The position numbers and the translations under genes were made by a program. Below the pieces are notes generated by a model. It saw only the letters and a list, made by a program, of their open reading frames with translations. It was not told the origin of the DNA and made no database searches. 38,300 nt of DNA from Polyangiales bacterium (lineage in GTDB: Bacteria > Myxococcota_A > Polyangia > Polyangiales > JADJMO01), in contig JBKJQC010001239.1 of NCBI GenBank assembly GCA_046593995.1, forward strand, positions 1 through 38,300, read 5' to 3'. Shown here one piece after another: positions 9,335 to 29,245 of the stretch; positions within the stretch are counted from its first letter, which is position 1; every line of letters starts with the position of its first letter.

Positions 9335-9526
9335 ACGAGAAAACACGGAGGCGCGGAGGCGCGGAGGCGAGAGGGAGGAGAGTCAAGAGGTGCTGCCGCG
9401 CGCACGCCTCCCAGCCTCGACGCTGCAGCGCGCCAGAGCCTCGTGGCGTCAGGGAAGAGGCCGGCAGACCTCTCGACTCTCGCCTCCCTCTCGCCTCCGC
9501 GCCTCCGTGCCTCCGTGTTTTCTCGT
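9335..9526. repeat. ~190-bp near-palindromic element with 64/66-nt arms built from CGGAGGCG repeats
   Basis: The left arm 9335-9398 and the reverse complement of the right arm 9461-9526 differ by only 2 substitutions and 2 small indels (hand alignment). Three perfect tandem CGGAGGCG units lie at 9346-9369 and are mirrored in the right arm. The centre holds the palindrome CGCTGCAGCG at 9421-9430. The element lies in the divergent gap between parA-like (start 9259) and the plus-strand operon (start 9584). Confidence 0.85.
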
Positions 9527-9583
9527 GTTTCGTTCCGCCGAAGAATGGCCAGGCGTGGTGGCTCGTCTTACGTTGTGAACGTC

Positions 9584-11586: not shown

Positions 11587-11816
11587 AGCCGCTCGTCGCG
11601 CTCTTGGTCGGGTGCGCGCGCGCCGCTCCGGCGTTCGGGTACCGACGTCGACGCCCTGCCCGACCCCCAGGTCCTGCCGCTGGGGCGGTCGAACTGTGCC
11701 CCGGGCAAAACCGGAAGCCGCGGAGCTTCGAAGCGGCGAAGACGCGCGCGATGACTTGCAGCGTCGAACCGTGACCGCCCCGCCCTGAGATCACGTGCCC
11801 TTTCGTACGCGAAACG

Positions 11817-14800
11817 ATGGTACCTTCCCCCATTCCGATGCATCCCGCGCAGATGGAGGAGCTCGTCCGAAGGCTGGTCGCGGACCCGAACGACCAGCAT
11901 GCGCTGCAGACGGCGTACGGCCAGGGACAGGCGGATCCGCGTGCCTACGCGTCGCTCCTCGAGCGCGTGGGTGACCTGACGCAGGACACGACGTTCGCCG
12001 CCCACTGGCTCTCGGAGGCCGCGAACGTCTGGTCCTCCGCGCTCGGCGACGCCCGCCGCGCGGCCACGCTCCTGATGCGCGCGATCGAGAAGGACCCTGC
12101 GAGCGACGTCGCGAGCGACCGCCTCGCCGCGCTCTATCGCGAGAAGGGCGATCACCGGGCGCTCGTCGCGCTCTACGAACGCCGCGCCAAGGCCCTCGCG
12201 CAGATCGCCGCGCACGATCCGGCGCTCACGCAGCGGCTGTCGATCCTGCACGAGGATCTCGGTCGCCTCTGGCAGGATCCGCCGTTGTCCCAGCCGCGCA
12301 AGGCGCTCGAGAACTACAAGAAGGCGTTCGAGGTCGACCCCGGCGCGGTCACCGCGATCTACGCCGCGCGTGAGCTCCTCAAGGCGCAGGGCGACGTGAA
12401 GGAGGCCTACCCCCTCTACGAGCTCGAGATCCGCGCGATCGACGATCAGGAACGGAAGATCGCGCTCCTCCGCGACGAGGCTGCCCTCCGTCAGGCGAAC
12501 AGCGACGCGAAGGGGGGCACGAACGCTCTGCGCAGCGCGCTCCGCCTCGTGCCCGACGACATGGGCCTGCAGTACGAGCTCGCGACCTCGATCGTCTCGC
12601 GCATCCTCGCCGGCGACACCGTCCCCGAGAGCGAGCGCAAGGAAGCCGCGGATCTGCTCGTCGAGATGGCGCAGCAGTACGACGGCGATCACGCGCTCGC
12701 GTACTCCGAGTCCGCGCTCGACGCGATGCCCGGTCACGACCGCGCGATGCAGCTCGTCGACCACTTCGCGAAGCAGGTCGGCCGAGACGATCTCGAGGCG
12801 CGCTGGGCTGCCTACGTCGACGCGAACCCAAAGGGCGCGATGGTCAGCGAGGCGCGCACGAACCTCGCGAAGACCTACGAGACGAGCGGACGTCTCGAGG
12901 ACGCGATCAAGATGCTCAAGCCGCTCGAGAACGATCCGAACCCCTCGGTCGCGATCAAGCTCGGCGATCTCTACGCGAAGGCCGGCAAGACGAACGAGCT
13001 CGCCGCCCACATGGATCGGCACAGCGCGCAGCTGCCGCCGGCGGAGCGCGTCGCGAAGCAGATCGAGATCGCGATGATGCTCGCGGGCAAGGGGGACAAG
13101 AAGGGAGCGCTCGGGAAGTATCGCGACGTCCTCGAGACGGATCCGCAACACCCCGAGGCGCTCGCCTACGTCGAGGACGCCCTCCGCGCCACGCGCCAGT
13201 ACAAGGAGCTGCGCGACGTGCTGCTCTCCGCTGCGCGCGCCGCCAACGCTCCGCTCGACTCGCGAAAGTCGCAGCTCCGCGAGGCCGCATCGCTGAGCGA
13301 GTCGCAGCTGAAGGACGCCGACGGCGCGGTCAATGCGCATCGCCAGCTCCTCGCGCTCGACCGCAACGACGAGTCGTCGCGCGCGGCGCTCCACCGACTG
13401 CTGGAGAAGGGGCAGCGCTGGGACGATCTCGCGGCCCTCGTCGAGCAGGAGGCGATGGCCGCAGCCGACGTCGAGCAGCAGATTGCGCTCGAGAAGAAGC
13501 TCGCCGACCTCCACGAGAAGAAACGCGGCGACAAGCGCGAGGCGGCCGAGGCGCTGCTCCGCGTGGTGACGCACGCGCCGAAGGACGAAGACGCGCTCGC
13601 ACGCGCGGTCGATCTGCTCTGTGCGATAGACGATTTCCAGCGTGCGGCGGCTGCGCTCGACGAGTACGTCGGCGCGCTCGATGCTGGTCCTCAGAAGGGC
13701 AAGCTCCTGACGAAGCTCGGCGAGCTGCGTGACCGGCTCGGCGATCAGAACGGCGCCGCCGACGCGTACGCCGAGGCCGGAGAGATCCTCCACGACGGAG
13801 ACGTGTGGCGCCGCGCCGAGGACTGCGCGACGAAGGTCGAACGCTGGGAGCAGGCGGCGACCGCTGCCGCGCGCCGCGGCGATCTCGAGCGTGACCCTGG
13901 GAAGCAGGCGCTCCTGCGCGCGACCGAAGCCGAGTACATCCTCCGCTCCGGCGACCCGCAGACGGCGATCGCGCGGCTGGAACAAGCGATCGACCTCGCG
14001 CCGCGCGACGAGAATCTCGCCGACAAGCTCGAGCGCATGTACGAGCAGGAGGGTCGGCTCGACGACCTCGCCGGCTACCTCGTCCGGCGCGCCGAGGGCA
14101 CGACGGATCAGGAGCAGTCGCTCGCTCTCCTCCGTCGCGCTGCGGTCTTCCGCCGCGAGCGCCTGACCGATCCGGACGGCGCACGCGATCTCCTCCTCCG
14201 CATCGTCGGCTCGACCGAGGATCGCGACGCGCTCTCGCAGCTCGCGGAGGACGCATCGACCCGCGACGACCACGCGTCCGCCTTGAAGTACCTCGCCCGC
14301 CTCGAAGCGCTCGCGACCGATCGCGCCGAGAAGACCAAGATCGCCCTCCGCCAGGCACAGATCACAGCGGACGGGATCGGAGACGTCGACGGCGCGATCG
14401 AGCGCTACAAGGTCATCCTCGACACGCTGAACGAGAACTGCCGCGAGGCGCTGCAGGCGATCGCCGATCTCGAGCAGGCGCGCGATCGCTACCCGCAAGC
14501 CGCCGACGCGCTCGAGCGCGATCTCGAGCTCGCCTCCGCCGGCGAGGAGAAGGCGAACATCGCGCGCAGGCTCGGCGAGATCTACATCGATCACACGCGC
14601 GAGCTCGGGAAGTCGCTCGCGGCCTACGAAACGGTCGTGCGCGAGGATCCCGAGGACTTCGCCGCGCTGCACAAGCTCCGCGAGCTGTCGGAGCGCGCCG
14701 AGAAGTGGCCGCGCGTGCTCGAGCTCCTCGACCAGCAGATCGAGGTCGAAGGCGACGACGACGAGATCGCGTCGCTCACGGCGCGCAAGGCGGAGGTGCT

Positions 14801-16943
14801 CGCCGATCACACCGGACAGGTCGACGAAGCGCTGCGCACGCTCGCGCCATTCACCGCCGGCGGCTCCGACGTCGCCCGCGCCGCCGCCCTCGCCATCGCC
14901 GACCGCCACAAGGCAGACGCGCAGATCGGCGGGCAGATCCTCGCGTGGGCGCGCACGACCGGCGGCACCGACGGACAGCGGCTCCTCGGAGAGGCGTTCG
15001 ATCGCTTCGTCGCGGGCAAGGCGTTCGACCGTGCGCTCGAGATCATCCCGGACGTGCTCCGCACCCCGCGCGGAAAAGACCCGGCGTTCCTCGAGCAAGC
15101 CGAGAAGCTCGCCGTCGACGCGCGCTCGACGGAGCTCGCGCTCGAGGTGCAGGATCGACGCATCGGCGGCCTCTCCGGCATGCCGCGCGGCGAAGAGCTG
15201 GTGCGTCAGGCGCGCGTGCGGATCGATCTCGGCATCCCGCGGATCGAAGCGCTCGAGCACGGTGAGATCGGCCTCGGCGCGGTACCGCCCGGCGAAGCCA
15301 CGGTCCTGATGAACGCGCTGAGCGAGCTCGCACCGACGCCGCTCGCCGCCGTCGAGCTCTACGAGCGGCAGATCACGCGCTGCAAGACGCCTGGCGACAA
15401 GCTCGCGGCCATCGTGCGCGCGTATCGCAAGTCGATCGAGCTCGAAGCCACGGGTGGCGCACAGGTCGCGGACAAGACGCGCGAGCTCGTCGAATTGGCG
15501 CTCGGTCTTGCCGCTGCGCCGGAGGACGCGTTCGATTCGCTCTACGCCGCGGCCTCTCCGCTCGACGCGGTCTCGGACGAGTCCCAGCACCGACGGCGGC
15601 TGATCGAGATCCTCGTCGCATCGACCGTCGGCCCGCGCGATGGCGGCCGCACCCGTTCGGCGCAGCTCCGTCGCGCCGCAGACCGCATGGGTCGCGAGCT
15701 CGGCGACGACCAGCGCGCGCTCGAGCTCCTCGCGCAGGGGCTCGTCGCACACGTCGACGCCGCGACCCTCGACGCGATCGAGCAGGCGACCGAAGACGAT
15801 CCGAGCCGCGCGGAGACCATCTACACGAAGGCGCTCGAAGAGGTCTTCGACGGCCCGCTCGTCCGACAGATCATCGGCCGTCGCGCGACCCTCCGAAAGG
15901 ATCGCCTCGGCGATCTCGACGGCGCGCTCCGCGACCTGAAGAAGCTCCACGAGCTCGCTCCCGCCGATCAGGCGATCACGGATAGGTATCGCGCGGTGCT
16001 CACCGAGGCGAACGACTATCGCGGCCTGATCCAGCTCTGCGAGGATCAGATCCTGCGCAGCAAGGACCAGGGCGTTCGCGCCGATCTCGCGCGGCAGATC
16101 GCGCACATCTGGGAGGGACGGCTCGGTGAGGCGCGCGAAGCAGCCGATGCCTGGCGCCGCGTGCTCCGTCTCAAGCCGCAGGATCCCGAGGCCACCGCGG
16201 GCCTCGATCGCGCGAAGCGGAACAAGCTCGAGTTCGATCCCGACAAGCACCCTGCGCAGCGGGTCCTCGTCGAGACGTCGATCGCGCCGCCGCCTCCCGG
16301 CTCGCGACCGCCGGCGGCACGCGCGAGCGCGCGACCGATGGCGCGTCCTCTCGCAGGGACGCCGAGCGTACGCCCCCCGTCGCGCCCCTCGACCCCTCCG
16401 CGATCCGAGCCGCAGCCGGCGCCGACGCCGAGGTCCGACCCGCCGATCACCGCGCCCTCCGCGGACGAGACGGACGAGCTGGTCGGGGATCTGTCGTCGC
16501 AGACGATGACGGCGGCGCCGAAGATCGCTGCCGCGTCCGAGCTCACGATGCCGGAGGACTACATCGACACGAGCGTCGGACCGCTCGGCGCGCCGCGCGA
16601 GATCCCCGAGGCGACCGCGGAGATCCCGTTCCACGCCGCGACCGACGCGTTCGCGGCGCTCCCGTCGATCACCGACGACGAGGACGAGGACGAGGACATG
16701 AAGACCCTCGTCGGCGACTCGCAGGCGATCGCCGCGCGCGACGCGGTCGAGGCGCGCCGAGATCGCGACCGCAGCCGGCTGCGCGAACGGAGCCCCGCGG
16801 AGACCGACGAGATCCCCGCGCTGCAGCTGCCACACGTCGCCCATGGCGCGAACCCGGATGCGAGCGCCGAGTTCGTCGCCGACGACGAGGTCGAAATCGT
16901 GGACGACGACGAGCTCGTCGTCGAAGACGACGACCACAAGTGA
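11817..16943 (+). CDS. giant TPR/helical-repeat protein (1708 aa) with a Pro-rich then acidic disordered C-terminal tail
   Basis: Diverse Ala/Leu/Asp/Glu/Arg/Lys composition with recurring TPR-like units (for example ...ALENYKKAFEVDPGAVTAIYAARELLKAQGDVKEAY...). Third codon positions are overwhelmingly G/C in this frame. The 1916-aa minus-strand ORF is its codon-aligned shadow. The start is uncertain among ATG 11817, 11838 and 11853, and there is no clear SD. Confidence 0.85.
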   Translation: MVPSPIPMHPAQMEELVRRLVADPNDQHALQTAYGQGQADPRAYASLLERVGDLTQDTTFAAHWLSEAANVWSSALGDARRAATLLMRAIEKDPASDVASDRLAALYREKGDHRALVALYERRAKALAQIAAHDPALTQRLSILHEDLGRLWQDPPLSQPRKALENYKKAFEVDPGAVTAIYAARELLKAQGDVKEAYPLYELEIRAIDDQERKIALLRDEAALRQANSDAKGGTNALRSALRLVPDDMGLQYELATSIVSRILAGDTVPESERKEAADLLVEMAQQYDGDHALAYSESALDAMPGHDRAMQLVDHFAKQVGRDDLEARWAAYVDANPKGAMVSEARTNLAKTYETSGRLEDAIKMLKPLENDPNPSVAIKLGDLYAKAGKTNELAAHMDRHSAQLPPAERVAKQIEIAMMLAGKGDKKGALGKYRDVLETDPQHPEALAYVEDALRATRQYKELRDVLLSAARAANAPLDSRKSQLREAASLSESQLKDADGAVNAHRQLLALDRNDESSRAALHRLLEKGQRWDDLAALVEQEAMAAADVEQQIALEKKLADLHEKKRGDKREAAEALLRVVTHAPKDEDALARAVDLLCAIDDFQRAAAALDEYVGALDAGPQKGKLLTKLGELRDRLGDQNGAADAYAEAGEILHDGDVWRRAEDCATKVERWEQAATAAARRGDLERDPGKQALLRATEAEYILRSGDPQTAIARLEQAIDLAPRDENLADKLERMYEQEGRLDDLAGYLVRRAEGTTDQEQSLALLRRAAVFRRERLTDPDGARDLLLRIVGSTEDRDALSQLAEDASTRDDHASALKYLARLEALATDRAEKTKIALRQAQITADGIGDVDGAIERYKVILDTLNENCREALQAIADLEQARDRYPQAADALERDLELASAGEEKANIARRLGEIYIDHTRELGKSLAAYETVVREDPEDFAALHKLRELSERAEKWPRVLELLDQQIEVEGDDDEIASLTARKAEVLADHTGQVDEALRTLAPFTAGGSDVARAAALAIADRHKADAQIGGQILAWARTTGGTDGQRLLGEAFDRFVAGKAFDRALEIIPDVLRTPRGKDPAFLEQAEKLAVDARSTELALEVQDRRIGGLSGMPRGEELVRQARVRIDLGIPRIEALEHGEIGLGAVPPGEATVLMNALSELAPTPLAAVELYERQITRCKTPGDKLAAIVRAYRKSIELEATGGAQVADKTRELVELALGLAAAPEDAFDSLYAAASPLDAVSDESQHRRRLIEILVASTVGPRDGGRTRSAQLRRAADRMGRELGDDQRALELLAQGLVAHVDAATLDAIEQATEDDPSRAETIYTKALEEVFDGPLVRQIIGRRATLRKDRLGDLDGALRDLKKLHELAPADQAITDRYRAVLTEANDYRGLIQLCEDQILRSKDQGVRADLARQIAHIWEGRLGEAREAADAWRRVLRLKPQDPEATAGLDRAKRNKLEFDPDKHPAQRVLVETSIAPPPPGSRPPAARASARPMARPLAGTPSVRPPSRPSTPPRSEPQPAPTPRSDPPITAPSADETDELVGDLSSQTMTAAPKIAAASELTMPEDYIDTSVGPLGAPREIPEATAEIPFHAATDAFAALPSITDDEDEDEDMKTLVGDSQAIAARDAVEARRDRDRSRLRERSPAETDEIPALQLPHVAHGANPDASAEFVADDEVEIVDDDELVVEDDDHK

Positions 16944-16946
16944 GCG

Positions 16947-17825
16947 TTACGCCGACTTGCTCTCGACGACCTTGAGGCCGAATGTGTGCTCGCGGGCGGG
17001 GAACTCTCCGCTGCGGACTTCGTCCACGTACTTCTGCGTAGCCTCGACGATCGCGTCGCCGAGCTCGGCGTAGCGCTTCACGAACTTCGGGCGCATGCCG
17101 CGGAACATGCCGAGGAAGTCGTAACAGACGAGGACCTGGCCGTCGCACTGGGCCCCGGCGCCGATGCCGATCGTCGGCACGGCGACCGCCTCGGTGACGC
17201 GCGCGGCGACGTCGGCCGGGACGGCCTCGATCACGATCGCGTAACACCCGGCGTCCTCGAGGGCGCGCGCGTCGCGGACGATCCGGTCGGCGTCGTCGTC
17301 GCGCTTACCCTGCACCTTGAAGCCGCCCATCGCGTGGACGCTCTGGGGGAGGAGACCGACGTGCCCCATGACGGGGATGCCGGCGCTGACGATGCGTCGG
17401 ACGTGATCGGCGACTTCGACGCCGCCTTCGAGCTTCACGGCCTCGTAGCCGCCTTCTTTGACGAGGCGGCCGGCGTTCTCGAGCGTCTTGTCGATCGAGC
17501 CGTGGAAGCTCATGAACGGCATGTCGCCCACCAGGTGCGCGCGTCGGAGCGCTCGGCTCACCGCGCGTCCGTGATAGACGACGTCGTCCATCGTGACCGG
17601 CAGGGTGTTCGGGAGTCCCTGGACCACCATCCCGAGCGAGTCGCCCACGAGCACCACGTCCGCGCCGCCCTCGTCGAGGAGGAGCGCCATCGTGTAGTCG
17701 TACGCGGTCACCATCGCGATCGGCGGCCCGTTGGCCTTCCGCGCGCGGAGCTCCGGGACGGTGACCTTGCGGACGGGCTTGTCGAGCTCGCGGGTCTCGA
17801 GAGAACCGCTTCTGGGAGCGTACAT
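16947..17825 (-). CDS. panB: 3-methyl-2-oxobutanoate hydroxymethyltransferase (ketopantoate hydroxymethyltransferase)
   Basis: 292 aa. [28 protein letters not shown] and IGIGAG blocks run co-linear with PanB over the full length. Confidence 0.93.
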
Positions 17826-18039
17826 CGTGCCTCCGGGTCGCGGCCGGGTAGAGTCCGGTCCACGCCTATCCCTAGGCTAACACGCGATGGGGACACGTCA
17901 CCTCCGGCGGTGAGGACTCCGCTGGAATTGTCGGCGCGACCCCTCTAGCCTGTGCATTGGCCGCACCTTCGATGGGTGCGCGCCCGCCGCGCAGTGGACG
18001 CAGTTGGAACTCGAGCGCCGCTCGCCCTCTCTGCCGTGA

Positions 18040-21000
18040 GTGATGCGTGAGTCGCGTGAGGTGACGTCTCGGATGCCCGAACCGCAGAACGACGCGCCGG
18101 AAGCGCTCCACACGCCGAACGAGCCCGAGGCGCAATCCTCGGGCGGAGCCGTGCCTCCGCCGAGCTCCACTGCGTCGTCACCGCCTGCCGCGGGGTCGGA
18201 CATGATCACGCGCCTGCGGGCCGAGGCCGAGGCGTGCGAGGACCCGGTTCGCAAGGCCGTCCTCCTGCACGAGGCCGCGGAGCTCGAGGAGCGCGTGGCG
18301 GGCGACGAGCTCGGTGCAGCGCGGGAGTATCTCGCGGCATTCAACCTCGACAACGGGTTCCGCGAGCCGCTCGAAGCGCTCGTGCGGATCCTCGAGCGTC
18401 GGCGGTCGCTGAAGAACCTGGCGCGCGTGCTCGACAGCATGTCGAAGTCCGCGGACACGAGCGAGGAGCGCGCGCGTGCGCTTCGCGCGCTCGCAGCCGA
18501 CGCGGTCGACGTCAAGAACGACCGAGACGGCGCGCGCGAGTTCCTCGAGCAGGCGGTCGACGCCGACGCGTCCGACCAGACCGCGTGGCTGATGCTCGAG
18601 ATCGACGCCGGCATGCGCCGTGACGGCGACGCACGACGGCGCGCGCTCGCCCGGCGCGTCGAGCTCACGAGCGATCCGAAATGGGCCGGCTTGCTCCGCG
18701 TCGACCTCGCCGACGAGAAGGCGGAAGGTGGCGACGTCGACGACGCGCTCGACGTCCTCACCGAAGTCATCAGCTCGCAGGACGCCGCCGCGTTCCGCGC
18801 GTGCGAGGCCGCCGAACGGCTCGCGCGCAAGGCCGAGCGGCAGGACCGCGAGGCGTGGGCGCTCGTCCAGCGCGGTGACATCGTCCTCGAGTCCCTGCAG
18901 GAGCCGCCGTCGCCGCGCGGGCTCGGTGTGCCGCGTGCGCTGCGGCGCGCCGGGGTCGCCGCCGACGCCTACGTGCGCGCTGCCGCGGCGTATCGCGGGT
19001 GTGGTCGCGTCGACGACGAGCTCGTCACGCTCGAACGCGCCATCGAGGTCGACGGGGACGCGACGATGCCGCACCTCGCGCGCATCGCGGCCGCCACGCG
19101 GCTCGGTGATCTCGATCGCGCGTCGCAGATCGCGCGCGCCCTCCTCGCGCGCGATCTACGCCCCGATCTGGCGCCGAACTTCTGGCTCGCGATCGCCGAG
19201 GGCGCGCTCGCTCATGGCGACCGCGACGGCGTGATCGAGGCGTGTGACCGGCTGCTCGAAGCGGCCAAGGAACACGAGGGACGGAGCGCGGTCGTTCCGA
19301 AGACGCTCCTCATCGATCTGCTGCTCGACGGCGCGGATCCGCAGCGCCTCTGCACATTGTGCGAGAACGACGCTTCCACGCGACCGACCGAGGAAGGTCG
19401 CGCGCGCGGCTATCTGGTCGCCGCAACCGTGCGTGCACTCTTCGCGAACGACGGCGAGGGCGCGCGGCGCGATCTCGATCTCGCGCTCACCAACGGTGCG
19501 CAGGCCGTGCAGGTCGCACGCCTCGCGGCGAGCCTCTCCGCCACGACGCCGGGCGCCCACGGCGAACCGGGCGACGCGGCGTGGTACGAAATGGCAGCGG
19601 ACGAGATCCGCGCGGCCTCCGACGACGAGAAGGAGAAGAGCGATCTGGCGATCGACCTCGCGCGCGTGCGCGCGGCGCGGAACGATCGCGACGGCGCCCG
19701 ACGCGCGCTCGAGACGATCGCCGACGACGCTCCGCACGGACTCCTCGCTCGGGTCGCACGCCTCGCGCTCGGTGGTGACGAAGCGGGGGACGCGCTCCTC
19801 GCGAAGCTCGGCGAGGGGACCGAAGGCGACGCCGCGATCGGGTTCGCCGTGGCTCGCGCCGTGCGCGCGACGCGGAAGGACGATGCGGCCGCGCGCACCG
19901 AAGCGCTCGCCGCGATCGGTGCGGCCTCCGAAGCCGACGAGCTCTCGTCGCTCGTCCGCGCATCCGCGGCGCTCGCGAAGAACCCGAGCGACGCTGCCTC
20001 GATCATGCGCGAGCTCTCGCGTACGTCGGAGGATCCGACGGCGCGCGACGTGCTCCGCTTGGCGGCAGCGATCCTCCTCGTGAAGGGGGGCGCGCGCGAC
20101 GTGGGCCTCGAGGTCGTCGACGAGCTCGAGACCGACGCGACGGGCGCGTTCGGTCCCGCCCGCGCGATCTGGCAGCGTCGGGTCGCGAACGGCGACGACG
20201 ACGCGCGACGCGCGGCCATGGATCTCACCGCGCGGGACGTGCTCGCCGAAGGATCGTTCGGTGCGCTCGAGCGCGCGATCGATCGTCTCGTCACGCCGAC
20301 CGGCGAGGGCGCGTCGGCCGAGGAGCTGCTCCAGGAGCTCGGGGGATCGCGCGATCCGTCGCTCGCGCGCACCGCGGTCCTCCTGCAGGCGATCTGGCCC
20401 GACGAGAACGTCGCGGCGGAGACCAAGGAGCAGGCGATCGGAGCGATCGAGGCCCTGGGCGGCGACGCCGGGCGTCAGCTCGCGCGCGCGTCGCTCCGTC
20501 GCGCGGTGCAGAGCGGCGATCCGCAAACGGCGATCGTCGGCGCGGAGGGGTGGCATCGCGCGGGCGGCGGCGCGCCGGCTGCGCTCGAGATGTTGATCGC
20601 TGCCGAGCAGGCCGCCGACGCCGACGCCGAGGTCCGCGCGCGCGTCGCGCTCGCGAGCTCGCTGACGGGTCCTGCGTCGCAGCTCGTCGCGGCGAGCGCA
20701 GCGCTCGCTGCGCACGTCGCGAATCTCCCGCCGCCTCCGCTCCCGTCCTCTGGTGAGGGGGACGCTGCGCAGCCGATCGCGCTCGCGCAGTTCGAGCTCG
20801 CCGAGCCGGGCTGCGATCCGACGCGTCGCGAGATGGCACTGCGCGGCCTCGCGGACATCGTCGAGGGATCGTCGTCGACGCTGCACGAGATGGCTGCATG
20901 GTCGGCGCTCGCGCGCGCCGACTACGGGAGCGCACGCGCGCTGTTCGCGCGGGCCCTCGAGCTCGCGCGCCTCGCTGCAGAAGAACCGCGGAGCGCGCTC

Positions 21001-22935
21001 GAAGGCGCGATCGAGACCGAGCTCCTCGCGGCGAGCGGTCGACCGACGCCGGCATGGGGCGATCTCGTCGAGCGCCTCGCCTTGCTCGTGGAGACTCGCG
21101 GCGACGTCGCCGGCGCAGCGACGCTCTTCGAGCAGGTCGGCCACGCTTGGTGGGATCGCATCGGCGATCAGGTCCGCGGCGAGCGCGCGCTCGGCGAAGC
21201 CTTCGCGCGCGACAACACGCGGAAGGCGGCGTTCGAGCGCGTCTTCCGCGCTGCGCGCACGCGGAAGGAAGACGATCGCCTCCTCGAGATCGTCGCGCAC
21301 CGACTCGAAGCGACGGACGATCCGCCGGAGATGGCGAAGCTCTTCTGGGAGCAGGCGCGCGTGCTCCGCGGGAAGGGCGACCGCGACGCGGCGCTCTCCG
21401 CCCTCGAGAACGTGACGATGCTCGAGCCCGATCACGTCGGCGCCCTCGCGCTCTCCGCCGAGATCTACGTCGGCCGTCAGCAATACGAGGAGGCTGCGAC
21501 CGCGCTCGATCGCCTCTCGCGCCAGCCCGTGCCCGCGCAGCAGAAGCTCGGTGCCGGGCTCGGCGCAGCGGACCTCTACGAGGCGAAGCTCGATCGCTCG
21601 GACAAGGCGCTCGACGTCCTCGTCGCGCTCGACAAAGCAGGCCTCGGCGACGTCGCAGTGCACGAGCGGATTGCGCGTGCCGCCGCGAAGGCCGAAGCGT
21701 GGATCCCGGCCACCGCGTATCTCGCGAAGCTCGTCACCGAGCGTCCCGATCCTCAAGGCCGCGCCGAAGCGGCGCGCCTGTGCGCCGCGATCTATCGCGA
21801 TCGGCTCGACGATCCGCAGGCCGCGGTCCCGGCGCTCGTCGCGCTGCTCCGCGAGTCGCCGGCCGATCTCGAGGCCGCCGAGCAGCTCCTCGACGCGAAC
21901 CCGGGCGTGAACCAGACGCGCGACGCGCTCCACGGGATCCGCAACGCCGCGCGCGCTCAGCTCCTGCAGTCGCCCGCCGACGTGCGCACGGCACGCCTCG
22001 TCTCGCGCACCGCAGCGCTCCTCGGCGACCCTGATCTGCAGCAGGTCGGACTGTCGGTGCTCACCGCGCTGCACTCCGCCGAGGACGACGAGCGGCGCAC
22101 GGCAGCGGCCTATCTCGCGCGCCTCGGAACCGCGCCCGCCGTCGCGCTCGACAAGGAGAGCGCGCGCCGCCTCGCCGCCCCGGAAGAAGCCGGCCCGATC
22201 TCCGATCTCTTCCGCTTGCTCGCACCGACGATCGCGGAGGCGCTCGGCCCCACGCAGGACACGCTCGCCGTCGGCCGCCGCGAGCGGGTCGACGCACGCT
22301 CGGGCAACGCGCTGCGGAACGAGATCGGTGCGTGGGCCGGAGCCCTCGGCATCGCCGAGTTCGACTTCTTCATCGGCGGCAAGGATCCGAACGCCATCCA
22401 AGGCGTGCCCGGTGAGCTCCCTGCGCTCGTCATCGGCGCGAACGTACGCGCGCCGCTGTCGCTCCCCGATCGCGCGCGCCTCGTACGCGAGCTCGTCGCG
22501 CTCGAACGCGGCACCACCGTCGTCCTCCAGCGTGACGACGTCGCCGTCGCGGCGATCGTCGTGGCTGCCTGCACGATCGCCGAGGTACCCCTGCAGATGC
22601 CGGCCTACTCGGTCCTCGCAGAGACCCAGCGCCTCATGAACAAGGCGATCTCGCGGAAGACCAAGAAGGTGCTCCCCGACATCGCGCAGGCCGTCGCCAA
22701 GCAGCTCGGCGGCGGGGGCGATCTCCGGACGTTCCGCGGACACGCGCTACGCACGCTCGATCGCGCCGCCGCGATCGCGACGGGCGACGCGGGCGCAGCG
22801 CTCGCGCAGATCGTGGGCGCGGACGCTCCGGCGGCGAAGATCGCTGCCGATCCTCGCGCGGCGGCAATGCTCCGGTTCGTGTGGAGCGACGACTACTTCG
22901 CGCTGCGGAAACAGCTCGGGCTCGGAATCGGGTGA
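18040..22935 (+). CDS. giant helical-repeat/TPR-like protein (1631 aa) with a shared C-terminal non-TPR module
   Basis: Coding-like composition and GC3 bias. The antisense 1195-aa ORF is a codon-aligned shadow. It is a paralog of the next gene at both the N-terminal helical start and the C-terminal ~260 aa. The start is uncertain among GTG 18040, ATG 18043, ATG 18073 and ATG 18202. Confidence 0.8.
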   Translation: MMRESREVTSRMPEPQNDAPEALHTPNEPEAQSSGGAVPPPSSTASSPPAAGSDMITRLRAEAEACEDPVRKAVLLHEAAELEERVAGDELGAAREYLAAFNLDNGFREPLEALVRILERRRSLKNLARVLDSMSKSADTSEERARALRALAADAVDVKNDRDGAREFLEQAVDADASDQTAWLMLEIDAGMRRDGDARRRALARRVELTSDPKWAGLLRVDLADEKAEGGDVDDALDVLTEVISSQDAAAFRACEAAERLARKAERQDREAWALVQRGDIVLESLQEPPSPRGLGVPRALRRAGVAADAYVRAAAAYRGCGRVDDELVTLERAIEVDGDATMPHLARIAAATRLGDLDRASQIARALLARDLRPDLAPNFWLAIAEGALAHGDRDGVIEACDRLLEAAKEHEGRSAVVPKTLLIDLLLDGADPQRLCTLCENDASTRPTEEGRARGYLVAATVRALFANDGEGARRDLDLALTNGAQAVQVARLAASLSATTPGAHGEPGDAAWYEMAADEIRAASDDEKEKSDLAIDLARVRAARNDRDGARRALETIADDAPHGLLARVARLALGGDEAGDALLAKLGEGTEGDAAIGFAVARAVRATRKDDAAARTEALAAIGAASEADELSSLVRASAALAKNPSDAASIMRELSRTSEDPTARDVLRLAAAILLVKGGARDVGLEVVDELETDATGAFGPARAIWQRRVANGDDDARRAAMDLTARDVLAEGSFGALERAIDRLVTPTGEGASAEELLQELGGSRDPSLARTAVLLQAIWPDENVAAETKEQAIGAIEALGGDAGRQLARASLRRAVQSGDPQTAIVGAEGWHRAGGGAPAALEMLIAAEQAADADAEVRARVALASSLTGPASQLVAASAALAAHVANLPPPPLPSSGEGDAAQPIALAQFELAEPGCDPTRREMALRGLADIVEGSSSTLHEMAAWSALARADYGSARALFARALELARLAAEEPRSALEGAIETELLAASGRPTPAWGDLVERLALLVETRGDVAGAATLFEQVGHAWWDRIGDQVRGERALGEAFARDNTRKAAFERVFRAARTRKEDDRLLEIVAHRLEATDDPPEMAKLFWEQARVLRGKGDRDAALSALENVTMLEPDHVGALALSAEIYVGRQQYEEAATALDRLSRQPVPAQQKLGAGLGAADLYEAKLDRSDKALDVLVALDKAGLGDVAVHERIARAAAKAEAWIPATAYLAKLVTERPDPQGRAEAARLCAAIYRDRLDDPQAAVPALVALLRESPADLEAAEQLLDANPGVNQTRDALHGIRNAARAQLLQSPADVRTARLVSRTAALLGDPDLQQVGLSVLTALHSAEDDERRTAAAYLARLGTAPAVALDKESARRLAAPEEAGPISDLFRLLAPTIAEALGPTQDTLAVGRRERVDARSGNALRNEIGAWAGALGIAEFDFFIGGKDPNAIQGVPGELPALVIGANVRAPLSLPDRARLVRELVALERGTTVVLQRDDVAVAAIVVAACTIAEVPLQMPAYSVLAETQRLMNKAISRKTKKVLPDIAQAVAKQLGGGGDLRTFRGHALRTLDRAAAIATGDAGAALAQIVGADAPAAKIAADPRAAAMLRFVWSDDYFALRKQLGLGIG

Positions 22936-22939
22936 TCAC

Positions 22940-25900
22940 GTGAGCGAGAAGAAGAAGACCGGAGGCGACGATCCGTTCACGGGGCTCGATTGGGACTCGG
23001 AGCTCGAGTCGGGGGACAAGTCCGCCGACGCGCCGGGTTCTGCCGAGGTCCCCGAGTCGTTCTCGAAACCTCTGCCGACAGCCGCGCCGGCCCAGCAAAC
23101 GCCGCCGGAGTCGCAGCGCATCGACACGCCGAACGCGCTCCGCCAGAGCCGACCGCTCTATCGTCCGCCGCCTGCCGCGGGACGCGCTTCGGGTGCGACG
23201 CCGCCTCCGCGCCCCGGACCGCCACGGCCCGGTCCCCCGAAGCTGCCTGCCTTCTCGAAGGGTGCGGTCACGATGCCGGAGCCCGACGAGCAGACGGTGT
23301 CGCGCACCGTCGACACGAGCGAGCTCGATCGCAACCTCCCTTCGCTGATCGAGGACGAGCCGGAGGACTCGCAGGCGAAGACACGCGCGAGCGACAAGCC
23401 GGAGGGCGAAGAGCATTACGACGAGAACGCGACGGTCGTCGCGCCGGTGTCCGCGGATCTCCTCGCGCAGCTCGAGGCCGCAGGGATCCGGAGACCTGGC
23501 TTCAAGAAGAAGGAGCCGGCGAAGCCGCCCGCTCCGAGGGCCGCCGCACCTCCGGTGGACATCGACGTCGGCATGGACGAGGCGCCCGAGCACACCGAGG
23601 AGCACCCGGCGCCCGAGCCCGAGGACCCGTCGGTCGTCACCTCCGCACCGGACTACGTGCGGCATGCTCGCCCCGGCCGCGGCGACATCAGCGACGCGCG
23701 TCCTGCGCCGCGCGCGGCCGACAAGCCCGGTGCGGGCGGCATGTACGATCCGTTCGCGGGAATGGACGTCGAGCCCGCGGTCTCCGAGACGGTGGGCCGC
23801 GACGCCGAGGCGCCGAAGCTCCTGCAGCCGGACGTGCGGCGACACTCCGCCGACGAAGAGACGGCGGTGTTCGACAAGAAGCAGATGTCGGCCGCGCTGG
23901 GCGGTCTGCCGGCCGCGAGCCCGCGCGCGCGGCAGCTCGATGCGGATGCGACGACGCCGGAGCCGTTCCACACGGCCGATCCGTTCGCCACCGCCGATCC
24001 GTTCGAGCGCGAGGGAGACGCTCCCGAGCTCGCGGCCTCCGAAGAGTACGCGGACGCTGCGGTGATCGATCTGCTCCGCGGCGACGACATGTCGAGCGAT
24101 GGGCTGCCCGCCGTGACCGACGCGCTCGCGATCGAGCGGACCGCCGCGGATTGGCTCGGTGATCAGGCCGACAAGTGGGTCGCGCGCGCGGAGCACATCG
24201 CAGCCGACGCGCGCACGCTCGAGAAGGCAGCCAAGGCGCGCGGTCTCGTCGTCGCGTCGGAGGTCATGGCGATCGCGGGCGACAGGCCGCGCGCGATCGA
24301 GCTCGCCGAGGAAGCCTGGAACGCCGCCCCGAACGACCCGCTCGCCGTGCGTCAGCTGCGGCAGCTCCTCGCGGCCGACGGTCGCTGGGACGACGTCACG
24401 CCATTGCTCGAGGCTGAGACCAAGACCGCTGCGTCGCCCTTGCTGAAATCACACGCCGCGCTGCTGTCGGCCGACGCTGCGCGACTCGCGCGCTCTTCGC
24501 CGGACGAGGCTGCCAAGCTCTACGAGCTCGCCCAACGTACGGCGTCGAGCGATCCGCGGCCTACGATCGCACGCGCGGTCGCTGCGGTGTCCGCCGCGAA
24601 GCCGCTGCCGGTGCTGAAGTGGTCTCCGGGGATGGAGCTCTTCGGCGAAGCGGTCGCTCGCCGCGCGCGTAGCGGTGAGCCCGTCGAGGACGTGCAGCTC
24701 GCCACCATCTTCGACGGGATCGCGACCTACGCCGACGGCAGCAACGTCGAGGGCGCGTTCGCACACGCGCTCGACGAGCTCGCGCAGACGGAGTCGCTCG
24801 CGCCGGCGGCGCTCTGGCTGCGCTTCTCGCTCGACGCGGCTCGGACGAAGACGCGCAACAAGGCACTCGAGAAGCTCGCAGATCTCCCGGCCGGTCGCGC
24901 CAAGGACGAGGCACGCCTCGGGATCGCGCTCGATCTCGGCGACGCATCGGGCGCCAGCGCCGCCGCGCACGATCTCGCTCGAGCGTACGTCGGTCGGGGA
25001 ACGGTCATCGCGCGCGAAGCCACGCGTCTGCTCGCGGGCGAGGACGCGTCGATCGACGGGCTCCTCGCGTTTGCGCGCGAGCCCGGCGTATCGTCGGTCG
25101 CGCGTGCCATCGCGCTGACGCGGAACGAGGACGCACCGGCGGAGGTCGTGGCGTCGGATCCGCTCGATGCGTCCGCGCGCGTCGCACGGCGTCTCGCGGT
25201 CGGAGGTCACGTCGACGTCGAGCTCCGGACGCGCACCCCACGCGGCGCGCAGCTCGGATTCGCTCTCGCCGACGCGCTCGGCGGCGGGGGACCGCGTGCG
25301 ACGATCGACGCCATCGGCTCGCTCCTCGCGTGGGACGACGGCACGGCGGACGCTTCGCTCGCGAGGATGCTCGCGGAGCTCGCCGAGTCGGACGCGCCGA
25401 CGGCGATCGAGTCTGCGCGCGAGGCGGCCAACGTCGAGCCGACCTCGTTCCCGGCGGTCCTCGCGCTCCTCGGCCTCGGCGCCGAGGACGGCGAGCAGTC
25501 CGCGGTCGCCGCTGCGGAGGGCACCCCCGACGAGGCCCGCGGCGCCGCGCTCGCACTCCGCATCACGCTCGCCGGCATCCGTCGCAACGACCTCGAGGGC
25601 GCGAAGCGCTCGGCAGAGATCGCGCTCCAGAACGCGCCCACCGACGCGGTCGCGACGTTCCTCGCGGAGCTCCGCGCGCGGCGAGCCGGCGACTTCGACG
25701 CCGTCGTCGAGGCGATCCGTCAGCGCACGCACGCGTCGAATGATCCCGTCGCGCGCGCGAGCAACCTCGTCCGCGAGATCTTCCTCCTCCTCGGCACCGA
25801 TCTCGCGACGTGCATCGACCGCGCAGGTGAGGCCGCCGACCTCGTGCCGCGCGACATCACGATGCGCGCCCTCTACGAGCGAATCGCCGGCGAGGGCGCG

Positions 25901-28609
25901 CAAGGGCGCGCAGAGTGGCGCGCGCAGATGGCCGAGACGCTCACCGGCGTCGCAAAGTCCGAGACGCTCCTCGACGCCGCGCGCGAGGCCGAGCGACGCG
26001 GCGATCTCGACAACGCCGAGAAGCTCGCGTTCGCCGCGGAAGCGGCCGGCAGCGGCGCCGAGGCGAGCTCACTGCGACATCGCGTACAGGCGCGCGGCGA
26101 CGGCGCGTCGCGTCTCGCGGAAGAGCTCCTCGACGCCGCCAAGAAGACGGACGATCCCGCCGTGCAGCGCGAGCTCTACGAGGCGCTTGCCGATCTCGAT
26201 CTCTTCGCGCGCGGCGACACGCCGAGCGCGATCATGTGGCACCAGGCCATCCTCGAGACGACGCCGCAGCACCTGCCGAGCCTGCGCCGCCTCGAGCACC
26301 TCCTCCTCTCGGTCGGTCGCGAGGACGACTACGAGTACATCGCGACGCAGCTCGCGCACATGCTGCCGAAGGACGCGCGGGACGCACACGCCGAGGTCGC
26401 GACGCGGCTCCGACTGCGAAGGCCCGGCGTCGCATGGGACTCGATCGCCGATCTCGCGATTACCGCGACCGAGCGCGAGAACCCCTCGCTGTGGGCGACG
26501 CGTCTCCTCGACGCGCTCGCACGCACCAAGGGTGACGACGCCTCGATCCTGCGCGCGGTGGACCTCCTCCTCGCGCGGCTCGATCGTCCTGCCGAGGTGG
26601 CTGCGCTCGCGACGCGCGGCGCCGAGGCCGCGTTCCGTGCCGGCGATCCCGAGCGCGCGCGCGCCTATCTCGAACGCGCCCTCGAGAACGACCCGCAGCA
26701 CCCGACCGCGCTCGCATCCCTCGCCGAGCTACGCCGCCTCGCCGGCGACTGGCGCGGCGCCGCCGAGACGATCGAAGCGCAGGCCCAGACCCAGCTCGTC
26801 GCGGAGCATCGCCTCGAGGACTGGCACGCCGCTGCGTGCATCTGGCTCGACAAGGTCTCGGACGAGGTGCGCGGCCGCGCGGCCCTCGAGCGCGCGTCGG
26901 AGATCGATCTCGGCTACGCGGACATCTTCGATCGCCTCGTCGCGATGGCGCGCGCGTCCCGCGAGAACGAGATCGTGGCGGATCTCTATCAACGCCGGCT
27001 CGGCCAGATCGAGGAGCCGCAAGGGCGCGCGCAGCTGCAGGTCGCCTACGCGCGCGTGCTCGTCGAGCTCGGCGATCGCGACGGCGCGCGCGTCGCGCTC
27101 ACGGCCGCGCTCGAGACGCTGCCGACCCACGCCGAGGCCCTCGAGGAAGCGCTCCGCCTCGCCGAGGAGGCGCAAGACTGGCCGGAGTACGAACAGCATC
27201 TGATCAGGCTGTCGAAGGCGCAGCCCGATCACGACCTGCAGATGCACGTGCTCCGGAGGCTCGGCGCACTCTACGAAGGGCCGCTGCCGAACCCCTCCCG
27301 CGCCGAAGCGGTCTACCGCAAGATCCTCGCGCAGGACGAGGGCAACGACGAGATCCTCGCACGCCTCGTCGCCGTGTACCTGCAGCTCGGAGACGCCGAC
27401 ATGGCGGTCGAGACCCATCAGGAGCGCGTGCAGATCGCCGTCGATCCGCCCCTTCGCCGCGTCCGCCTCATCGAGCTCGCGAAGCTCCTCGACGAGAAGG
27501 CCAACCAGCCCGAGCGCGCGCTCAAAGCGCTCGAACAAGCGCGCGGGAGCGACCCCTCGGATCTCGACGCGCTGAGCGCGCTCGCGCAGTTCCACACCAA
27601 GCACGGTCGGCCGGACGCCGTGGCCGCCGCGCTCGACGACGCGATCCGCGATCTCCGCCGCCGAGTAGGGAACGATCCCGGCGATCTCGCGCTCCTCGAT
27701 CAGCTCGCGAAGATCCTCGAGCTCCGCGGACGCGGCGACGCCGTGAGCGTCGTGCGCGCAGCCACGGCATTTCTCCGCGGGGAGATCGCCGACCTGGTCG
27801 GCGCCGAGGACGCGGCCTCGCTCCCCGAGCTCGACCGACTGCTCTGCCCGCCGGAGATCACCACTGCGCTACGCGCGTTCTTCGAGAAGACCGCGGAGTC
27901 GATCGAGAAGTCGATCCCCGTCGATCTGCGCATGCTCAAGGCCGCGAAGCTCGGTGCGAACAACCCGGCGCTCAAGGCGAAGATCGACGCCGTCTCCCGT
28001 GGCTTCGGGCTCCCCGATCCGGACGTCGTGATCTCTCGCGCGATGCCGCTCCTCTGTCTGCCCGTAGGTTTCAAGCCGCTGCAGATCGTGCTCGGGGACG
28101 GCATCGTCACGACCGAGGACGAGATCACGCGGAAGTTCGTGCTCGCGCGCGCGGTTAAGGTGTGCGGCGCGAAGTGCGCGGTGCTGGTGCGCGTACCGCC
28201 GGCGGATCTCAAGATCAACCTCGACGCGCTCCTCCACCACTTGAACCCCGATCATCCGGCGCCGGAGCTCGAGCCGGAGCGACTCGACGAGATGACGAAG
28301 CGCCTCGCGCGCTTCCTCCCTCGCAAGGAAGAGGCCGAGCTGAAGCAGCTCGCGATCGACGTCGGCTCGGTCGATGTCGACAAGCTGGCCGCCGCCGCTG
28401 CGACGTGGGGCGATCGCGTCGCCTTGCTCTGCATCGGCGATCTCTCGGCAGGTCTCCGCGGCGTCGCCTGGACGCTCGGACAGAAGGATCCGCCGCAGGA
28501 TCCGGACGAGCTACGTCGGTGGCTGCGCGACAACCCGGCGGCGCGCGATCTCGTCGCGTTCGCGGTCTCGGACGAGTACGTCGAGGCGCGCCGGATCGCC
28601 GGCGTCTGA
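22940..28609 (+). CDS. giant protein (1889 aa): ~390-aa disordered Pro/acidic N-terminus with DPF motifs, long TPR-like array, shared C-terminal module
   Basis: The GTG start lies 4 nt after the previous TGA (22933-22935). TPR-like units run throughout (for example RAEAVYRKILAQDEGNDEILARLVAVYLQLGDADMAVETH). The three minus-strand ORFs checked (22634..24196, 24449..25903, 26729..27604) are codon-aligned shadows. Confidence 0.85.
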   Translation: MSEKKKTGGDDPFTGLDWDSELESGDKSADAPGSAEVPESFSKPLPTAAPAQQTPPESQRIDTPNALRQSRPLYRPPPAAGRASGATPPPRPGPPRPGPPKLPAFSKGAVTMPEPDEQTVSRTVDTSELDRNLPSLIEDEPEDSQAKTRASDKPEGEEHYDENATVVAPVSADLLAQLEAAGIRRPGFKKKEPAKPPAPRAAAPPVDIDVGMDEAPEHTEEHPAPEPEDPSVVTSAPDYVRHARPGRGDISDARPAPRAADKPGAGGMYDPFAGMDVEPAVSETVGRDAEAPKLLQPDVRRHSADEETAVFDKKQMSAALGGLPAASPRARQLDADATTPEPFHTADPFATADPFEREGDAPELAASEEYADAAVIDLLRGDDMSSDGLPAVTDALAIERTAADWLGDQADKWVARAEHIAADARTLEKAAKARGLVVASEVMAIAGDRPRAIELAEEAWNAAPNDPLAVRQLRQLLAADGRWDDVTPLLEAETKTAASPLLKSHAALLSADAARLARSSPDEAAKLYELAQRTASSDPRPTIARAVAAVSAAKPLPVLKWSPGMELFGEAVARRARSGEPVEDVQLATIFDGIATYADGSNVEGAFAHALDELAQTESLAPAALWLRFSLDAARTKTRNKALEKLADLPAGRAKDEARLGIALDLGDASGASAAAHDLARAYVGRGTVIAREATRLLAGEDASIDGLLAFAREPGVSSVARAIALTRNEDAPAEVVASDPLDASARVARRLAVGGHVDVELRTRTPRGAQLGFALADALGGGGPRATIDAIGSLLAWDDGTADASLARMLAELAESDAPTAIESAREAANVEPTSFPAVLALLGLGAEDGEQSAVAAAEGTPDEARGAALALRITLAGIRRNDLEGAKRSAEIALQNAPTDAVATFLAELRARRAGDFDAVVEAIRQRTHASNDPVARASNLVREIFLLLGTDLATCIDRAGEAADLVPRDITMRALYERIAGEGAQGRAEWRAQMAETLTGVAKSETLLDAAREAERRGDLDNAEKLAFAAEAAGSGAEASSLRHRVQARGDGASRLAEELLDAAKKTDDPAVQRELYEALADLDLFARGDTPSAIMWHQAILETTPQHLPSLRRLEHLLLSVGREDDYEYIATQLAHMLPKDARDAHAEVATRLRLRRPGVAWDSIADLAITATERENPSLWATRLLDALARTKGDDASILRAVDLLLARLDRPAEVAALATRGAEAAFRAGDPERARAYLERALENDPQHPTALASLAELRRLAGDWRGAAETIEAQAQTQLVAEHRLEDWHAAACIWLDKVSDEVRGRAALERASEIDLGYADIFDRLVAMARASRENEIVADLYQRRLGQIEEPQGRAQLQVAYARVLVELGDRDGARVALTAALETLPTHAEALEEALRLAEEAQDWPEYEQHLIRLSKAQPDHDLQMHVLRRLGALYEGPLPNPSRAEAVYRKILAQDEGNDEILARLVAVYLQLGDADMAVETHQERVQIAVDPPLRRVRLIELAKLLDEKANQPERALKALEQARGSDPSDLDALSALAQFHTKHGRPDAVAAALDDAIRDLRRRVGNDPGDLALLDQLAKILELRGRGDAVSVVRAATAFLRGEIADLVGAEDAASLPELDRLLCPPEITTALRAFFEKTAESIEKSIPVDLRMLKAAKLGANNPALKAKIDAVSRGFGLPDPDVVISRAMPLLCLPVGFKPLQIVLGDGIVTTEDEITRKFVLARAVKVCGAKCAVLVRVPPADLKINLDALLHHLNPDHPAPELEPERLDEMTKRLARFLPRKEEAELKQLAIDVGSVDVDKLAAAAATWGDRVALLCIGDLSAGLRGVAWTLGQKDPPQDPDELRRWLRDNPAARDLVAFAVSDEYVEARRIAGV

Positions 28610-28636: not shown

Positions 28637-29245
28637 ATGAACGTCTTCGGGCTGACCGGCGGCATCGCCTCCGGGAAGAGCGCCGTCTCCGCGCTCTTCC
28701 GCCGCGAGGGAGTGCCGGTCGTCGACGCGGACGAAGTGGCGCGCGAGGTGGTGGCAGCCGGCTCTCCCGGCCTCGCGGCAATCGTCGAGGCCTTCGGTCC
28801 GGGAGTGCTCGCCGAGGACGGCACCCTCGATCGCAAGAAGCTCGGCGCGATGATCTTCGAGGACGAGTCGCAGCGCGCGCGGCTGAACGCCATCCTCCAC
28901 CCGGCGATCGGGAGCGCGAGCGCTGCGCACTTCCAGCGGCTGACCGCAGCGGGCCATCCGCTCGCGTGTTACGACGCCGCGCTCATCGTCGAGCGCGGCA
29001 TCGCCGACATGTTCCGCCCGCTCGTGGTCGTCGCCGCTCCGCGCGAGATGCAGAAGCAGCGCCTGATGGCGCGCGACGGGCTCAGCGCGGCGGACGCCGA
29101 CGCACGCCTGGACGCGCAGATGCCGGTGGAGACGAAGGTCGGCGTCGCCGACATCGTGATCTGGAACGACGCCGATCTCGCGACGCTCGAGTCACGCACG
29201 GTCGACGCGCTCGGCCGCGTGCGGGGGCGGGTGCGAGCGACGTAG
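28637..29245 (+). CDS. coaE: dephospho-CoA kinase
   Basis: 202 aa. MNVFGLTGGIASGKS is the P-loop. VVDADEVAREV, the ILHPAI region and the overall length are typical of CoaE. It starts 27 nt after the giant gene's stop, with GAAGGG upstream. Confidence 0.88.
   Translation: MNVFGLTGGIASGKSAVSALFRREGVPVVDADEVAREVVAAGSPGLAAIVEAFGPGVLAEDGTLDRKKLGAMIFEDESQRARLNAILHPAIGSASAAHFQRLTAAGHPLACYDAALIVERGIADMFRPLVVVAAPREMQKQRLMARDGLSAADADARLDAQMPVETKVGVADIVIWNDADLATLESRTVDALGRVRGRVRAT

Follow-up and report, generated by a model that had tools for sequence, protein, structure and literature searches.

A conserved pair of giant TPR-like paralogs with a shared C-terminal globular domain in Polyangia

We analyzed a window of 38,300 nucleotides (nt) from a Polyangiales bacterium (GenBank assembly GCA_046593995.1, contig JBKJQC010001239.1, positions 1 to 38,300 of the forward strand), which holds on its plus strand three giant open reading frames (ORFs), G1 (11817–16943, 1708 amino acids (aa)), G2 (18040–22935, 1631 aa), and G3 (22940–28609, 1889 aa), all similar to tetratricopeptide repeat (TPR) proteins. 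G2 and G3 are shown to descend from an ancient tandem duplication and to be kept in Polyangia (Myxococcota) as an obligate, translationally coupled gene pair. Each ends in a globular domain for which, judging from structural models, a zincin-like fold is plausible; G1 has no such domain. An earlier note on this DNA, made from its letters alone, had proposed that the three giants, together with an adjacent PP2C phosphatase, form one multi-subunit and possibly phospho-regulated scaffold; the present results narrow the focus to two genes, rather than three and a phosphatase.

G2 and G3 as coupled full-length paralogs

Alignment of the family profiles with hhalign places residues 37–1617 of G2 collinearly on residues 409–1889 of G3, over 1415 columns and up to both C-termini (E 3e-47). 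As this alignment runs end to end, G2 and G3 are full-length paralogs. Their paralogy had been suggested in the earlier note from a short pair of similar segments, which prove to be the start of the true alignment. The relation is missed by BLASTP, because pairwise comparison is too insensitive here: among the three giants it yields weak and scattered TPR-level matches only, with the two C-terminal domains at E 0.21.

G2 (18073–22935 from its likely start) consists of a variable disordered N-terminus of ~45 aa, a TPR-like solenoid, and the C-terminal globular domain. G3 starts with a GTG codon 4 nt after the G2 stop codon and carries a disordered N-terminal extension of ~400 aa (22940–24150, plus strand), of which G2 has no equivalent; it is rich in Pro, Ala, Glu, and Asp, contains four DPF motifs, and shows low conservation and frequent gaps in the family alignment. 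DPF motifs are found 3–6 times in the first 500 aa of G3 proteins of the window's clade, and nowhere else in them. Close to the N-terminus, after a basic KKK patch, the extension holds a short motif, DDPFTGLDWDSELESGD (22967–23017, plus strand). The motif, which reads GLDWDSELESGD in the window, has the family consensus [GL]DWDxxLxxW[DE] and is kept at the extreme N-terminus of homologs down to ~33% identity. The solenoids of G2 and G3 have a fixed length of ~1250 residues, and their conservation in the family alignments is even and nearly gap-free, hence a fixed architecture and not an expandable repeat array. Both proteins are strongly acidic (net charge −61 and −88) and have no signal peptide or transmembrane segment, and are therefore probably cytoplasmic.

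Membership of all three giants in the TPR repeat superfamily follows from profile hidden Markov models (HMMs) scoring over curated Pfam thresholds, with TPR_19 in G2 (30.3 vs. 25), TPR_19 (49.1), TPR_14 (41.6), and TPR_17 (33.3) in G3, and TPR_17 (34.0 vs. 24.4) and TPR_19 (31.5 vs. 25) in G1; these matches cover a small part of each giant, and the remainder is called a degenerate solenoid from its off-register self-similarity. The giants had been described in the earlier note as TPR-like arrays throughout, which holds insofar as their Pfam matches are all of the TPR type, but not for the last ~250–300 residues of G2 and G3, which are not TPR-like and form the shared domain, then unnoticed. 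The absence of Walker A and HExxH motifs reported there is confirmed by a motif check of all three giants, which likewise have no transmembrane segments. With neither the Walker A pattern GxxxxGK[ST] nor a Pfam match to an NTPase in G1, G2, or G3, they fall outside the class of STAND and other P-loop NTPase-TPR proteins. None of the three matches a family among the protein models of PADLOC-DB, which speaks against a place among the anti-phage defence proteins modelled there, and none reaches an NCBIfam TPR equivalog (XrtA/PEP-CTERM PrsT, PilW, MamA, LapB, Tgl), the best scores, 50–54 bits, falling far short of the 312 required for PrsT, and all the others likewise lying far below their cutoffs. 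The search found no characterised homolog or family model for any of them; homologs are named "hypothetical" or "TPR repeat protein", with some JGI entries for G2 and G3 homologs named "predicted Zn-dependent protease", and a literature search found no paper on these families. The statement of the earlier note that the giants cannot be assigned to a characterised complex thus stands: no characterised ortholog was found, and the names of homologs are uninformative.

Conservation of the pair was followed in two sets of loci, here given L numbers where they have to be told apart. Genome loci were counted only if they reach the G2–G3 junction (n = 9), and a metagenome scan anchored on the C-terminal domain of G2, with G2-only members, gave 66 loci. 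G2 is followed by G3 in 9/9 genome loci, including one at 34% identity. Of the metagenome loci, 54 extend 1 kb or more downstream, and in each of these a G3-like gene comes next; 36 extend 6.8 kb or more, and each of these has a second C-terminal domain. Close relatives show this gene order too. The two genes overlap by 4 nt in L016 (Polyangiaceae) and L017 (Sandaracinus) and follow each other without a gap in L024 (deep branch); in L018, G2 and a G3-like gene 2.5 kb further downstream are separated by two small called genes. Among these loci, none was seen with only G2 or only G3.

The flanks of the pair are replaced completely between lineages, so that the invariant unit, found amid housekeeping genes, is the pair itself. 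In the window, G2 is preceded by the divergent housekeeping gene panB (16947–17825, minus strand; Pfam Pantoate_transf, 2.5e-113), which is convergent with G1, and G3 is followed after 27 nt by coaE (28637–29245, plus strand; Pfam CoaE, 4.5e-55), which is probably co-transcribed with it; this arrangement, with the gaps of 4 and 27 nt, agrees with the earlier note. The two flanking genes are specific to the window's clade, with panB seen in L001–L004, L012, and L014 and both genes absent from the 66 metagenome loci. Elsewhere, atpD-atpC lie directly upstream (14 metagenome loci), typA lies downstream (9 loci), or the pair is accompanied by genes for a small membrane protein, a Zn-ribbon TPR protein, and PBP1A (Polyangiaceae). 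In the deep lineages L017, L018, and L024, an aromatic amino-acid lyase gene (Pfam Lyase_aromatic) is found directly upstream of G2, divergent from it in L018 and L024 and on the same strand in L017. A link to coenzyme A synthesis via panB and coaE was considered and rejected, these flanks being clade-specific. The co-conservation and tight coupling of G2 and G3 fit two subunits of one assembly.

Since G+C content of the window is ~70%, long spurious ORFs are common in it. All three giants have G+C contents of coding type at the third and second codon positions (GC3 0.87–0.89, GC2 0.46–0.52) and hundreds of length-conserved homologs each (~1550–1670 aa for G2, ~1750–2000 aa for G3, and ~1650–1790 aa for the more than 821 matches of G1), and are therefore real conserved genes, not high-GC shadow ORFs; their extents and their Ala/Leu/Asp/Glu/Arg-rich composition had been given correctly in the earlier note. 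By source names, the relatives come from uncultured Polyangiales, Polyangiaceae, and Sandaracinus. From the N-termini of homologs, the likely start of G1 moves to 11838 (1701 aa), and that of G2 to 18073 (1620 aa), the homologs of the latter beginning with MPEP or MSEP. Two antisense ORFs on the minus strand, 11187–16937 (1916 aa, opposite G1) and 19156–22743 (1195 aa, opposite G2), failed the filter for coding-type GC3 and are shadow ORFs; they can be so long because Ala, Leu, Glu, Asp, and Arg codons at 70% G+C seldom give antisense stops. Promoter and terminator scans of the region 9.9–29.8 kb gave counts at the level of shuffled sequence and are uninformative.

The shared C-terminal domain and its possible relation to zincins

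The C-terminal domain of G2 (22171–22932, plus strand) comprises 254 aa and is predicted by AlphaFold2 (AF2) to be an alpha/beta globular domain (pLDDT 93.6, pTM 0.90); it belongs to no Pfam family. The homologous domain of G3 (27842–28606, plus strand) is modelled with similar confidence (pLDDT 92.1, pTM 0.90). An HMM built from the G2-family domains matches the G3 protein of the window at E 2.6e-19 and distant G3 members at up to 1.7e-38. A Pfam search at E up to 10, with both C-terminal domains and 19 members, gave no recurrent family. Among 1.84 billion representative proteins scanned, 4012 contain the domain, 901 of them at E<1e-30; almost all of the 150 best matches listed have it C-terminally, in G2- or G3-like proteins or fragments. 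The window holds exactly two copies, and homologs of G1 have none.

In both AF2 models, a helix is followed by three or four strands, a long helix, and a helical bundle; helix, three strands, long helix, and helical bundle is also the order of elements in zincins. For the G3 model, the top PDB match in a Foldseek search is Ste24p (E 0.8, probability 0.41, 19% identity over 239 columns), with ZMPSTE24 and BepA recurring lower in the list. With the G2 model, BepA and the minimal M48 protein 3c37 (probability 0.47, TM 0.43) lead the list, ahead of ACE/ACE2, an M61 aminopeptidase, and anthrax lethal factor; zincin metallopeptidases occupy ~38 of the top 50 rows. The structural check proposed in the earlier note, run here on the C-terminal domains of G2 and G3, thus delivered confident models but no significant fold match.

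An active HExxH protease is certainly excluded. No HExxH motif is present in G1, G2, or G3, and in 331 C-terminal domains the helix at the corresponding position reads R-x-x-[LV]-A-R-[EA]-L, with Arg in place of His and never His; the sole HExxH among them occurs in one sequence, elsewhere than in the aligned helix. The joint alignment of the two families has an invariant Gly, Arg, and Gly and no conserved His. Membership in the M48 peptidases, tried as a candidate, is rejected by sequence, as, beside the missing motif, hhalign gives a probability of 0.06 and Pfam Peptidase_M48 has no match at E up to 10.

Our favoured explanation is that the paralogs G2 and G3 assemble into a heteromeric scaffold, in which the C-terminal domains would be catalytically dead zincin-like (M48-like) modules, the former substrate cleft now binding an extended peptide. 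Candidate ligands would be conserved short motifs on disordered tails, e.g., the [GL]DWDxxLxxW motif of G3 itself and its DPF repeats, and the complex would serve a core cytoplasmic function. Taken as a whole, this explanation is put forward tentatively, with a likelihood that falls somewhat short of even.

Several results weigh against it. None of the Foldseek matches is significant (best E 0.68–0.8, probability at most 0.47, TM at most 0.43); hhalign of the joint domain alignment against BepA, HtpX, and LoiP of Escherichia coli gives a probability of 0.06 and E 0.73; and a profile search of PDB sequences yields nothing but a noise-level transaldolase (E 0.23). The heteromer, the peptide binding, and the identity of the ligand we infer from gene coupling and analogy only. 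As the fold matches are non-significant and both the M48 profile comparison and the PDB profile search fail, zincin ancestry is a lead and not a result, although the fold itself, as modelled, is plausible.

These failures are what would be seen if the domain were unrelated to zincins and had a new fold, with binding of an anionic ligand or an unrecognised activity as its role, and were delivered or regulated by the solenoid. The near-invariant residues would suit this, being mostly Arg and Gly (the Arg of a DRxALL motif, one in the long helix, and one near the C-terminus, with a conserved PRK motif), as fit for binding of phosphate or carboxylate. However, two independently built models rank M48-family structures first, the list for G2 is dominated by zincins of four families, which is not expected of random helical matches, the element order matches the zincin core, and the 331 instances show no conserved constellation of His, Cys, Ser, or Asp suggesting catalysis. 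On balance, a new fold seems rather unlikely.

The heteromeric part of the favoured explanation has its own competitor: G2 and G3 may act independently, as homo-oligomers or redundant adaptors, and stand side by side merely by their origin, tandem duplicates being adjacent from the start. We regard this as improbable, since the order has survived divergence to ~20% identity between the paralogs and ~30–35% between orthologs, across which the flanks turn over completely, the start and stop codons of the two genes overlap or lie 0–4 nt apart, and the loci surveyed never show one gene without the other. Furthermore, the paralogs are asymmetric, with the 400-aa extension and the N-terminal motif in G3 only, which argues for distinct, complementary roles.

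A wider form of the favoured explanation, in which G2 and G3 would be a Polyangia-wide core machine, a solenoid heteromer whose dead-zincin heads catch tail motifs, and a large cytoplasmic platform that has no characterised bacterial counterpart, is held with more doubt than the explanation itself. The roles of such a platform could lie in cell organisation, cargo positioning, or proteostasis, and its C-terminal modules, thousands in number, would constitute a new family of pseudo-protease domains.

G1 and the other genes of the window

As far as sequence profiles tell, G1 is not a collinear paralog of G2 or G3 and belongs to a different family. hhalign of G1 against either of them gives several equally scoring off-register alignments, i.e., TPR similarity at the level of repeats. 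G1 (11838–16943 from its likely start, plus strand; the ORF opens at 11817) encodes a TPR-like protein of 1701 aa with a conserved N-terminus, a solenoid up to residue ~1470, and a disordered tail rich in Pro, Ser, and Thr that ends in an acidic block. Both termini are conserved, the acidic block included, and G1 of Polyangiaceae adds a terminal PPPxPR motif. Because of the conserved N-terminus, the Ser/Thr/Pro-rich disordered tail, and the conserved acidic block, G1 is a plausible phospho-regulated hub in its own right. The stop codons of G1 and panB are convergent and 3 nt apart (16941–16949), which leaves no room for a terminator, and the transcripts must therefore overlap or end inside the opposite gene.

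The block to which G1 belongs in the window's clade consists of genes for an RHH protein and a ParA-like ATPase, divergent from those for a small secreted protein, ChaC, in some cases PP2C, and G1. In the window, these are a small ParA/MinD-like ATPase (8555–9259, minus strand; Pfam AAA_31, CbiA, MipZ) followed by the RHH protein (8254–8703, minus strand; Pfam RHH_5), and, on the plus strand, a small secreted protein of ~110 aa with a signal-peptide-like N-terminus (~9640–9970), a ChaC-like gamma-glutamylcyclotransferase (9978–10532; Pfam ChaC, 2.8e-52), and a Stp1-like PP2C Ser/Thr phosphatase (10567–11586; Pfam PP2C_2, and NCBIfam Stp1_PP2C_phos at 1.6e-58, which is below the curated cutoff). 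The last of these lies 230–250 nt upstream of G1, its end at 11586, 230 nt before 11817, being as noted earlier. Since the PP2C ORF shares its first ~125 codons, in another frame, with the ChaC gene, the start of PP2C is placed near 10.53–10.57 kb. An ORF at 8486–9970 (plus strand, 494 aa) was dropped as a gene; it is mostly antisense to the ParA-like gene, with the small secreted protein at its 3' end. Together, the small ParA and the RHH protein resemble a chromosomally located type Ib partition pair.

The pair of ParA and RHH genes also adjoins the G1 block in L012 and L025. In L012/L013 and L025, G1 comes right after ChaC, with no PP2C between them, and PP2C stands beside G1 only in the window and L001. 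In this clade, the G1 block stays within ~10 kb of G2–G3 in varying places and orientations: upstream on the same strand in the window, inverted in L001, inverted and 10 kb away in L012, and 8.4 kb downstream of coaE in L025. Both G1 and PP2C are absent from all 66 more distant G2–G3 loci. A pairing of the ParA-like ATPase with the basic N-terminus of G3, on the model of PomX/PomZ, was considered and dropped, as the ATPase gene travels with the G1 block, occurs in the window's clade only, and is absent from the other G2–G3 loci.

A Ser/Thr kinase gene lies directly before G1 in three syntenic Polyangiaceae genomes and after G1 in L025; the neighbours in L022 differ again. Upstream of G1 in L010, L011, and L023 are genes for SppA, a large uncharacterised protein (which in L023 has Zn-ribbon and TPR domains), an unknown protein, a methyltransferase, a HEAT protein, an M23 peptidase, and the Ser/Thr kinase, and in two of these three loci a DnaJ-Hsp70 pair lies 4–5 kb downstream of G1. 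In the window, the Ser/Thr kinase named in the earlier note is found at 4576–6249 (minus strand), 5.6 kb upstream; it overlaps by 4 nt the downstream gene of a DAGK/YegS-type lipid kinase (3650–4579, minus strand), with which it probably forms one operon. Kinases number ~6 in 150 kb of the loci centred on G2 and G3, a density at which chance alone would give adjacency in roughly one of every three to four cases; in the unrelated loci retrieved, there is about one kinase per 15 kb. As kinases are so dense in these genomes, a kinase or phosphatase near G1 is suggestive at best, and kinase–G1 adjacency is a weak sign of phospho-regulation.

Least probable is the model of the earlier note, in which G1, G2, and G3, with PP2C and the nearby kinase, form one phospho-regulated scaffold: the proximity of the G1 block to G2–G3 despite rearrangements, the Ser/Thr/Pro-rich tail, and the presence of a kinase or PP2C not more than 3 kb from G1 (window, L001, L010/L011/L023, L022, and L025) speak for it, but G1 is missing from the 66 distant loci, is mobile relative to the pair, sits in an unrelated neighbourhood in Polyangiaceae, has no PP2C next to it in L012 and L025, has a kinase adjacency that chance would yield in a fair share of cases, and shares with G2 and G3 repeat-level similarity only and not the C-terminal domain. 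Of the co-occurrence of the three genes and PP2C, for which the earlier note had suggested a synteny check, the G2–G3 part holds (54/54 and 36/36 loci) and the G1 and PP2C parts fail. If G1 has any link to G2/G3 or PP2C, it is no more than a loose one, restricted to the clade.

Two further observations concern the right end of the window. A TPR protein of 381 aa (33388–34533, plus strand) has 85–87% identity in L001, L012, and L014, where its neighbours, including the giants, have only 55–70%, and is unusually strongly conserved for the region. At 36458–38269 (minus strand), a fatty-acid desaturase gene adjoins one for a ferredoxin-reductase-type protein (NAD_binding_1 and Fer2), which is probably the electron-transfer partner of the desaturase.

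Significance and comparison with known systems

Genomes of the Polyangia (Sorangium, Chondromyces, Sandaracinus, and many uncultured lineages of soil and groundwater) are among the largest in bacteria, and little work has been devoted to the cell biology of the group. In them, G2 and G3 make up ~10.5 kb of coding sequence that never separates and lies amid housekeeping genes (atpDC, typA, panB, coaE, PBP1A); the inseparable pair, this setting, and a confidently folding, undescribed domain point to a core function. If the pseudo-zincin interpretation is true, the pair would be a large bacterial case in which a protease fold has been reused for binding, and would supply a defined domain to seed a new family. 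The C-terminal domain, the N-terminal motif of G3, and the invariant Arg residues are elements that can be tested.

Large TPR-rich proteins that serve as cytoplasmic assembly platforms are present in the same phylum, namely the motility and polarity scaffolds SgmX, AglT, GltD/AgmU, and AgmK of Myxococcus. None of these names appears among 359 listed homologs of the giants, and it is by names only that the giants are set apart from SgmX, AglT, GltD (AgmU), and AgmK. None of them is known to occur as a pair of paralogs sharing a C-terminal globular domain. A resemblance to the eukaryotic TTC21/IFT139 solenoids comes from Pfam ARM_TT21_5th, whose cutoff is exceeded by G1 (35.7 bits) and G3 (45.6 bits); however, these matches span 60–80 residues with no significant individual stretch, and reflect generic TPR/ARM similarity, not orthology.

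For the C-terminal domain, the best-ranked structural neighbours, all non-significant, include Ste24p/ZMPSTE24 and 3c37, a putative Zn peptidase of Geobacter; Ste24, however, is an integral membrane protease, and its catalytic residues are absent from G2 and G3. BepA (YfgC) of E. coli comes closest in design, as it joins a TPR array and a zincin alpha/beta domain in one polypeptide, as G2 and G3 do with their possibly zincin-like one, and is among the top fold matches of both models; some G2 and G3 homologs bear JGI names as predicted Zn-dependent proteases. BepA, however, is a periplasmic protein of 487 aa with the protease domain N-terminal and the TPR array C-terminal and with an active HExxH...E site, whereas G2 and G3 have 1600–1900 aa, no signal peptide, the reverse domain order, neither HExxH nor a conserved His, and no similarity to BepA at the level of sequence profiles. 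Of known designs, the fusion of a TPR array to an M48 protease seen in BepA is thus the nearest, and G2 and G3 depart from it in size, domain order, compartment, and catalytic competence.

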